Assembly (NCBI GenBank): GCA_947626035.1
Contig: CANQQR010000001.1
Location: 13,096-77,095 of the forward strand
Length of the DNA stretch: 64,000 nt
Source: an uncultured Bacilli bacterium
GTDB taxonomy: Bacteria > Bacillota_I > Bacilli_A > RF39 > UBA660
Direction: 5' to 3'
The translations under genes were made by a program, and so were the position numbers. How positions within the stretch are numbered: the stretch's first letter is position 1; each line of letters starts with the position of its first letter. The notes beneath the pieces are model-generated. The model was not told the DNA's origin, did not search any database, and saw only the letters and a program-made list of their open reading frames with translations. Of the stretch, positions 33,979-34,740 are shown piece by piece.

Positions 33979-34740
33979 TTAATAATATGATATTGTTTTA
34001 CCTTGTGCGGTACCAAAGCATTGATTAGAACAGCTGTCTCTACAATTAGAATTACAGTTATTAGAACAAGAGCCAGAGCATGCCCCGTCACAGCCATCGC
34101 AATCATTGTCACAGCTACCATCACAGCCACTGCCACAACCGCGACAACCATTACATCCATGGCAGCCGTTTTGACATGAACCGCCACAACTACTACAACC
34201 ATTACAACCATCACAGCTGGTGCAACCGAACTCACATCCACTTCCACAATTTGAGTCACAGCCACCACACCCTGAACAGGTGCCTTCACAGCCTCCAGTA
34301 CATGCACTGCATCCTCCGCAACCGTTACAACCTTCGCAAAAGCTATCACAACCTCCGCTACAACCTCCGCTACAACTACCGCAGCCGCTACAACTACTGC
34401 ACCCAGTGCAACCGCCGCTGCATCCAGATACACATAGTCCTGTACATGCACTTCGGCATGATGAAGTAGTTGTTTCTTTTGATAGCTTCGTGACTTCATT
34501 GATCAATGTTCCGCTATAACCAGTTGGTATTCTTTGTCCTTTAACAGCATTAACTAAGTTATCATAATCTTTTATTATAAGCAGTAAATTGCCAGTCGCT
34601 TGCCCTTGAGTAGCAAGAATTGGTTGCCCTTTAACCGCGGAAGAGTAGGTTCCTAATTTACTTGATAAGTTTCGACGCTTAAATTCTGTCTCTATTGCTG
34701 CGCGAAGGGCGTTTATTTCTGCTGCCGTTATCATTGCCAT
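33979..34740 (-). CDS. Cysteine-rich repeat protein: ~95-aa N-terminal domain followed by ~155 aa of CxxC/CxGC tetrad repeats (~60 Cys)
   Basis: Start is 4 nt after the stop of the tail-fiber-like gene 34747-35358; sequence ...[24 protein letters not shown]...; overlapping alternate-frame ORFs are artefacts of the repeat. Confidence 0.55.

Follow-up and report, generated by a model that had tools for sequence, protein, structure and literature searches.

A cysteine-repeat protein encoded with a radical SAM maturase in a phage cassette: a likely enzyme substrate and candidate tail-fibre component

The cysteine-repeat gene, its reading frame and its operon

The 64,000-nt stretch of contig CANQQR010000001.1 analyzed here (the window; all coordinates are positions in it, in forward-strand numbering) encodes a 253-aa cysteine-repeat protein, followed on the same strand by a small partner protein and a radical S-adenosylmethionine (SAM) enzyme. 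As an initial annotation made from the sequence alone had stated, the list of open reading frames (ORFs) and the translation place the ATG-started cysteine-repeat gene at exactly 33979-34740 on the minus strand, beginning with the ATG at 34740 and ending with the stop codon at 33979-33981. A Shine-Dalgarno-like GGGGGTGA (34747-34754, minus strand) lies 6 nt upstream of the ATG and overlaps the stop codon of the upstream gene. Along the minus strand the cysteine-repeat gene is followed by a 25 nt gap and the gene for a 102-aa partner protein (33646-33954, minus), which has its own AAGGAGA ribosome-binding site. With a 0 nt gap, the gene for a 444-aa radical SAM/SPASM maturase follows (32311-33645, minus), its ATG abutting the partner's stop codon. 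A bidirectional terminator-like hairpin (32283-32307) with an 8-10 bp stem, 6 G-C pairs and T-runs on both strands closes this minus-strand operon. The window holds no second cysteine-repeat ORF and no second radical SAM gene.

The cysteine-repeat protein falls into three parts. Residues 1-94 (34459-34740, minus) form an N-terminal domain of ordinary composition, hereafter the N-domain, which is helical and conserved as judged by AlphaFold2 (AF2), homologue conservation and a hidden Markov model (HMM). All 42 cysteines of the protein fall in residues 95-241 (34018-34458, minus), a stretch of 147 aa with 42 Cys, 40 Gly and 27 Ser, the remainder being chiefly Asn, Asp and Thr. Residues 242-253 (33982-34017, minus) make up the C-terminal end. 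Every one of the 41 Cys-Cys spacings is 3 or 4, giving 18 CxxC and 23 CxxxC units. Of 200,000 shuffles of the 147-residue stretch, not one placed every spacing at 3 or 4, and the most successful did so for 22 of 41, indicating that the regular spacing is far beyond chance. The Cys content of ten other long ORFs in the window is 1.8%. Thus, the extreme composition and regular CxxC/CxxxC spacing described in the initial annotation hold for the 147-aa stretch, but the count of ~60 cysteines given there does not.

The consensus unit of the family is C-[ST]-G-[GST]-C or C-[ST]-G-C, with the positions between cysteines occupied mostly by S/T, G and G/S/T. The N-domain ends in a junction, C-x3-C-[ST]-G-[LM]-C, that starts the repeat. 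At the other end, Q240-C241 together with residues 242-253 form a cap motif, Q-C-[FY]-G-x-A, which recurs at the C-terminus of 32 of 180 distinct family sequences and also in the ortholog L089. Within the N-domain, L12, E19, R22 and R23 are conserved in at least 90% of 70 homologues, and AF2 models residues 1-~100 as four helices with a predicted local distance difference test score (pLDDT) of ~80-90. A Foldseek search with the N-domain returned no PDB match, and a PDB sequence search with the cysteine-repeat protein gave nothing meaningful (best E-value 0.98). Pfam and NCBIfam profile searches of the protein yielded no match even at E<=10, and a search of PHROGs also gave none. Membership in the metallothionein or keratin-associated families, proposed for comparison in the initial annotation together with SCIFF/ranthipeptide precursors, is not supported, as no Pfam or NCBIfam profile matched at E<=10; the same profile search likewise returned no SCIFF or ranthipeptide precursor family.

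Several frames are open across the repeat. A 178-aa V/A-rich ORF (33963-34499, minus) runs in the +1 frame of the repeat, a 129-aa H/N-rich ORF (34080-34469, plus) and a 99-aa P/Q-rich ORF (34220-34519, plus) lie antisense to it, and the ORF list also contains an overlapping 58-aa ORF (34003-34179, plus). The V/A-rich ORF has no conserved N-terminus, and its ATG at 34499 has no ribosome-binding site comparable to GGGGGTGA. The gene in the Cys frame fills the space between its neighbours, and this tight packing holds for the Cys frame only. In at least 268 homologues, the conserved, non-repetitive N-domain runs unbroken into the Cys repeat. Additionally, we mapped the positions that vary within the repeat in four sets of closely related homologues of equal length, and third positions of the Cys frame accounted for 37 of 47, 21 of 26, 45 of 58 and 84 of 112 of them. 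The ortholog L089, whose partner protein is 83% identical to the 102-aa protein of the window, keeps a 253-aa ORF in the Cys frame whose N-domain is 60% identical and whose C-terminal end is the same. A further, independent metagenome copy, L086, has the same length, with 2 substitutions and no insertion or deletion. Because of the homologues, the Shine-Dalgarno site with the tight packing, the third-position variation, L089 and L086, we conclude by comparison that the Cys frame is the translated one. The ORFs in other frames are artefacts, in agreement with what the initial annotation had said of the V/A-rich and H/N-rich ORFs; the frame at 33963-34499, which it had named as an example of a frame that might be translated instead, is refuted by the same data.

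The public gene caller annotated the V/A frame in L086, at 1576-2112 (equivalent to 33963-34499 of the window). The exact cysteine-repeat protein is absent from the protein collection, where its neighbour is present at 100% identity, probably because the gene caller picks the V/A frame. As gene callers can pick the wrong frame over such repeats, as in L086, proteins of this kind are probably under-represented in protein databases.

The repeat had also been described as a likely hotspot for length variation, an expectation that the data do not bear out. As DNA, the repeat is degenerate, with Cys and Gly codons mixed across it and with longest tandem arrays of period 9, 12 or 18 in 2-3 copies. 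Exact-DNA searches of metagenome and viral collections found no further copies, leaving L086 and the ortholog L089 for comparison. Because the DNA repeat is degenerate and the sole independent copy (L086) is of identical length, rapid slippage is not supported here, and the repeat of the window is a weak slippage hotspot. Between lineages the number of Cys repeats differs hugely, from 8 to >100 Cys. In L006 (2608-3696), a Cys-repeat ORF shifts part-way into the V/A-rich frame through a frameshift inside the repeat, which may be an assembly error or real.

With 432 bits (E 2e-129) over profile positions 2-359 of 359, the maturase exceeds the cutoff of 350 set for NCBIfam TIGR04115 ("radical SAM peptide maturase, CXXX-repeat target family"), and it matches PHROG 1802 at 3e-65. 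Scores for other named families fell below their cutoffs: PapB 166 vs 340, SCIFF maturase 93 vs 425 and RumMC 63.5 vs 720. QhpD (105) and CcpM, a Cys-rich peptide maturase (87), likewise below their cutoffs, were the other next-best named NCBIfam families. The CX3CX2C motif is intact (C46/C50/C53), and seven further cysteines of the SPASM type (C291, C309, C359, C362, C368, C371 and C390) are invariant, as judged in a 4-sequence alignment (A3). Among solved structures CteB (5WGG) is the nearest, with the alignment starting at CteB residue 98. The ~95 N-terminal residues that come before this aligned core have no counterpart in the maturase; in CteB they form an RRE domain, where RRE stands for recognition element of RiPPs, which are peptides made by the ribosome and modified post-translationally. 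Given this lack, a dedicated partner that handles the substrate would be plausible.

The fold of the 102-aa partner consists of one beta-strand, two long helices and a beta-hairpin. Its positional homologue in L001, ~20% identical to the partner of the window, matches TIGR04116 end to end with a score below the cutoff (15.5 vs 50). Relatives of the cysteine-repeat protein reach the target model TIGR04114 (cutoff 20), namely a 267-aa protein of L046 (34.3 bits) and P0055 (20.1 bits), and PF27846 (tSAM_targ_Cxxx_rpt) is precomputed on many homologues. The system is already catalogued (TIGR04114-04118, PF27846), apparently on in-silico grounds only, and by its profile score the enzyme is a clear member of it.

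Relatives, hosts and genomic context

Linkage of repeat protein, partner and radical SAM enzyme is near-obligate. We scanned IMG/VR viral contigs with an alignment of the radical SAM enzyme and found 425 contigs that encode a relative of the maturase. A Cys-repeat ORF lies just upstream in 76 of the best 80 loci, and the other 4 have no upstream DNA. Homologues of the partner occur in 79 of 85 loci, directly before the radical SAM gene in the loci inspected, and the N-domain HMM matches 71 of 85 radical SAM loci. As a separate observation, the maturase gene of L089 (1537-3936), the closest ortholog of the cassette, encodes 799 aa with Hint and Intein_splicing domains, so that an intein is inserted in this maturase.

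Members of the family share a ~100-aa N-domain followed by a repeat of very variable length, in which spacing 4 is commoner than 3; the first 120 homologue matches contain 8-56 Cys. Architectures range from a protein of 168 aa with 17 Cys, through a split pair in which a 176-aa protein (N-domain plus 17 Cys) precedes a 265-aa pure repeat with 64 Cys, to proteins of 357-408 aa with 65-77 Cys. The 816-aa proteins (L071-type) have an N-terminal repeat but no N-domain, and two ALK_LTK_GRD glycine-rich domains are fused to this repeat. Searching 1.84 billion representative proteins with the N-domain by itself yielded P0162, in which N-domain and repeat are followed by a 170-aa C-terminal non-Cys domain, and P0190 and P0022, which carry an additional N-terminal domain ahead of the N-domain. 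Radical SAM relatives at 35-40% identity, in Clostridium gasigenes, Peptoniphilus, Halanaerobiales and others, adjoin Cys-repeat peptides of 50-113 aa that weakly match TIGR04117/04118.

Cys-rich proteins of other kinds were also seen. L052 encodes a second, different one (16764-17858; 364 aa, 81 Cys, pattern CSCNSDCADGCGSDC), which has an N-terminus loosely like the N-domain and lies 6 kb downstream of the radical SAM gene on the same contig. Margulisiibacteriota/Termititenax loci (L148-L157 and L160) encode proteins of 390-660 aa, upstream of maturase relatives of ~30% identity, that contain up to 122 Cys in CxxxC register and have neither an N-domain nor a partner homologue. The glycine-rich domain PF12810, named after the animal receptor kinases ALK and LTK, occurs in 2-4 copies in proteins encoded at 6762-9212 and 3897-6455 of L071. 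Multi-copy phage proteins of this type are also found in L073, L076, L078, L079, L081-L083 and L085, and one PF12810 phage protein is fused to a 64-Cys repeat.

Occurrence is restricted to anaerobe hosts. The trio was found in prophages or contigs of Lachnospiraceae, Blautia, Eubacterium, Oscillospiraceae and Faecalibacterium, as well as Christensenella, Clostridium, Vallitalea, Desulfosporosinus and other anaerobes, most of them Clostridia. The best match in a bacterial genome, at 60% identity, is from a Lachnospiraceae metagenome-assembled genome. Carriers in culture include Vallitalea maricola AN17-2, Eubacterium pyruvativorans i6, Desnuesiella massiliensis mt10 and Neglectibacter timonensis SN17. 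When the maturase was compared with 50,697 phage records, only two unannotated faecal contigs matched.

Judged by gene content, the cassette sits in tail-fibre/baseplate (receptor-binding) modules, clearly in relatives and with weak support in the window. L001, a P2-like Vallitalea maricola prophage, has its genes arranged as Baseplate_J, Tail_P2_I, Phage_tail_fib, Cys protein, a 166-aa ORF, partner and radical SAM gene. The gene just upstream of the cassette matches tail-fibre PHROGs in L004 (1.5e-20) and in L018, carries Phage_fiber_rpt and Mtd_N in L008, contains a Peptidase_G2 intramolecular-chaperone domain in L052, and has multiple ALK_LTK_GRD domains in L071. In L046 a baseplate wedge gene is found three genes upstream, and an endolysin gene follows the cassette in L071 (GH25-CHAP-SH3) and in L008.

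Upstream of the cassette in the window, the minus-strand block begins with a gene for a 410-aa protein with weak resemblance to a minor tail protein (36412-37644), which in tblastn matches phages of Roseburia and Faecalibacterium. It also includes genes for a 122-aa protein (35363-35731) and a 203-aa G/T-rich, probably fibre-like protein (34747-35358). The PHROG matches of the 203-aa protein are to stretches of large families whose function is unknown, and in tblastn the protein has weak matches to Enterocloster phage PMBT24 and to a gene of Dulem virus 35 annotated 'tail protein'. The 410-aa and 122-aa proteins start alike, with MSRVYSS(M/S)G(E/D), as would be expected of alternative proteins docking at one tail site. 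A 50-aa ORF (MNKDKMILKDGTVIELE...; 35903-36055, minus) ends at an in-frame TAG (35903-35905), beyond which the frame is open for ~38 more codons to ~35790; read-through, a sequencing error or a pseudogene could account for it. No homologue of the extended product was detectable in the loci, and stop-codon recoding was rejected for this TAG, there being no genome-wide sign of it.

Converging on the radical SAM gene from the other side is a gene for a 498-aa protein (30770-32266, plus) with DUF2828, DUF7788 and a weak VWA match, and with a match to PHROG 850 'RNA-binding protein'; the hairpin at 32283-32307 is common to both genes. On the plus strand at 39169-63242, the window encodes a metallophosphoesterase, RNA ligase, PhoH, a two-gene topoisomerase II, DNA ligase and a DnaB-like helicase, and it also encodes an endolysin (45224-46696) and a GIY-YIG homing endonuclease (55686-56660), both on the plus strand. 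Since topoisomerase II, RNA ligase, PhoH, DNA ligase, helicase, endolysin and homing endonuclease genes are all present, the source is a large phage.

Function of the cysteine-repeat protein

We think it fairly likely that the cysteine-repeat protein is the substrate of a phage-borne CXXX-repeat radical SAM system and that it is most probably a structural part of the tail-fibre apparatus. That the adjacent radical SAM enzyme might act on it had been suggested in the initial annotation. From the TIGR04115 match and the co-occurrence of the genes we infer that the protein would indeed be the substrate of the maturase, but the two genes are not directly adjacent, the 102-aa gene lying between them. 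Neither this partner gene nor the tail-fibre context was part of that annotation. A structural role is favoured because tail-fibre genes adjoin the cassette in relatives and because repeats are fused to glycine-rich or globular domains, and the product is presumably present in the virion. PapB, QhpD and CteB form Cys-S-to-carbon thioethers. As these are among the nearest named families, the modification is, by analogy, probably a Cys-S-to-carbon thioether; the thioether scaffold raised in the initial annotation is thus the best chemical guess.

We propose the following mechanism. In the anaerobic host, the maturase, aided by the partner that would present the substrate to it, would convert the thiols of the 42 cysteines into intramolecular thioether-type links to nearby residues. 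Such cross-linking would turn the structureless Gly/Ser-rich repeat of 147 residues into a chain of small rings, forming a rigid stalk that would withstand proteases and be unaffected by redox conditions. The folded N-domain would dock this stalk onto neighbouring fibre proteins. The rationale would be that thioethers, unlike disulfides, can be relied on in the reducing gut lumen.

A number of observations weigh against this proposal. No conserved acceptor residue, comparable to the Asp of the PapA CX3D motif, occurs in register in the repeat, and AF2 gives the repeat no confident fold (pLDDT <50). The partner of the window does not match TIGR04116, and its fold shows no recognisable RiPP-recognition winged helix of the PqqD-like type; no RRE was found in the maturase or as a separate protein. 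The cysteine-repeat protein of the window does not match the target models TIGR04114 and PF27846 at E<=10, likely because of composition-bias filtering. In the window, the cassette lies among nucleotide-metabolism and replication genes with no adjoining baseplate gene, and its upstream neighbours (410, 122 and 203 aa) resemble tail proteins only faintly. Neither megablast of the locus nor tblastn of the cysteine-repeat protein found anything in the 50,697 phage records, so that no cultured phage carrier was seen there. Lastly, a literature search found no experimental work on any TIGR04115 member.

Among other accounts, it is unlikely, though worth considering, that the protein is a classical RiPP precursor, in which a ~95-aa leader precedes a repeat core, the core being cross-linked and then cut off to give a free bioactive peptide such as a phage-encoded bacteriocin or signal. 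The radical SAM enzyme does come from a peptide-maturase family, long leaders exist in other radical SAM systems, and the distant relatives at 35-40% identity adjoin the short Cys-repeat peptides that weakly match TIGR04117/04118. However, no peptidase, exporter or transporter family was found in the window block, and the consistent placement inside tail-fibre modules does not suit a released peptide. The ordinary ~95-aa N-terminal sequence noted in the initial annotation stands, but a simple leader, as offered there, does not: the N-domain is confidently folded into helices by AF2, matches no NCBIfam leader-peptide model (NHLP, Nif11) even at E<=10, is missing from some radical SAM-linked repeat proteins (265-aa pure repeats and 816-aa fusions), and occurs inside multidomain relatives, the relatives reaching up to 816 aa. 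Membership among ranthipeptide, sactipeptide or SCIFF precursors is likewise not supported, as the maturase scores below the PapB, SCIFF and RumMC cutoffs and the target is a 253-aa protein with a folded domain and no peptidase or exporter.

Quite unlikely, in our assessment, is a metal-binding protein, either metallothionein-like or an Fe-S/zinc scaffold, that stabilises the fibre while the radical SAM enzyme acts elsewhere or only assists. The dense CxxC/CxxxC spacing is compatible with metal clusters, the failure of AF2 to fold the repeat alone would fit such a protein, and metal ions stabilise the gp37 needle at the fibre tip of phage T4. Pfam, however, gave no match at E<=10 to a metallothionein, keratin or other Cys-rich family. 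Metal binding would also leave unexplained the near-obligate link to a dedicated partner and to a maturase of a thioether-forming clade, and hosts that are exclusively anaerobes fit the need of an oxygen-sensitive enzyme better than simple metal binding.

It is improbable that the protein is modified by the radical SAM enzyme and yet absent from the virion, acting as a tail-fibre assembly factor or as some other late protein inside the cell, with its gene lying between those for fibre and lysis. Its position in the P2-like Vallitalea prophage, directly after Phage_tail_fib, is indeed that of a tail-fibre assembly gene, and Firmicutes phages commonly carry genes of unknown role between fibre and lysis genes. 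However, proteins in which glycine-rich domains of the receptor-binding type or C-terminal globular domains are fused to the repeat resemble fibre parts rather than chaperones, and a repeat number of 8 to >100 Cys is typical of shafts. Finally, that the real gene is another frame such as the V/A-rich 33963-34499, or that the repeat is non-coding DNA, is hardly credible: the open frames across the repeat and the choice of the gene caller in the near-identical L086 might suggest it, but the comparative data given above (N-domain continuity, third-position variation, the fit of Shine-Dalgarno site and packing, and L089) refute it.

Returning to a cross-linked fibre component as the preferred account, we advance a broader idea more tentatively, at a little under even confidence: phages of strict anaerobes may use RiPP-type radical SAM chemistry to cross-link a structural protein of the virion, with dozens of thioether rings making a Gly/Ser/Cys repeat into a tail-fibre stalk of tunable length in place of disulfides or metal ions. 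Radical SAM maturation of a phage fibre component appears to be undescribed, and a compendium paper on radical SAM enzymes does not mention the CXXX-repeat system. If true, the CXXX-repeat family would gain its first biological role, and the protein would be the first of a virion to be matured by a radical SAM enzyme. A cross-linked fibre element would represent a new way to build stable virion parts under anoxic, reducing conditions and would explain why such phages carry an oxygen-sensitive enzyme. For protein engineers, it would provide a genetically encoded, length-tunable rod resistant to proteases and redox conditions. The system is common, with the 425 IMG/VR contigs and prophage copies in many gut Clostridia.

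Comparison with known systems

Similar to metallothioneins and keratin-associated proteins, the cysteine-repeat protein has an extreme Cys content and short regular spacing. It differs from them in its phage origin, its link to a maturase and its lack of a profile match at E<=10, and its cysteines are separated by Gly, Ser or Thr instead of following the typical CxC/CC patterns.

Among phage proteins, the adhesin gp38 of Salmonella phage S16 consists of an N-terminal attachment domain and a polyglycine-II C-terminal domain. Like the protein studied here, it is small, has an N-terminal docking domain and a Gly-rich low-complexity C-terminal part, and is encoded beside fibre genes; a further likeness to Gly-rich adhesins is that the repeat is fused to the ALK/LTK glycine-rich domain in relatives. 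No sequence or fold similarity to S16 gp38 or T4 gp37 was found with Pfam and Foldseek. Moreover, stabilisation in the window protein would come from covalent links installed by an enzyme, and not from glycine packing or metal.

The PapB/PapA (freyrasin) system, other ranthipeptides, CteB and QhpD resemble the window system in that SPASM radical SAM enzymes act on Cys-rich substrates, and, as in the PapB and CteB systems, each of the repeated short Cys units would give a small ring. After TIGR04115, PapB gives the highest score of any characterised family, and no solved structure is closer than that of CteB. However, the maturase of the window is far below the PapB and SCIFF cutoffs, and it is without the N-terminal region of CteB. 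Unlike the substrates of the PapB and CteB systems, the repeat has no conserved in-register Asp, Glu or Thr acceptor, and the protein is 3-10 times larger and not obviously cleaved.

The closest counterpart is the CXXX-repeat system itself (TIGR04115/04116/04114/04117/04118, PF27846). Differences lie in the target and accessory proteins of the window, which miss the models, and in the form of the target, a 253-aa protein with a folded N-domain encoded in a phage fibre-gene block and not a small peptide. The maturase scores above the TIGR04115 cutoff, a ~100-aa accessory gene immediately precedes it, and a target with tandem Cys-Xaa-Xaa(-Xaa) repeats is encoded two genes upstream. By sequence comparison, the target and accessory of the window are too divergent or composition-biased for the models, yet they are homologous to proteins that match or nearly match them, and homologues of the target reach TIGR04114 or carry PF27846.

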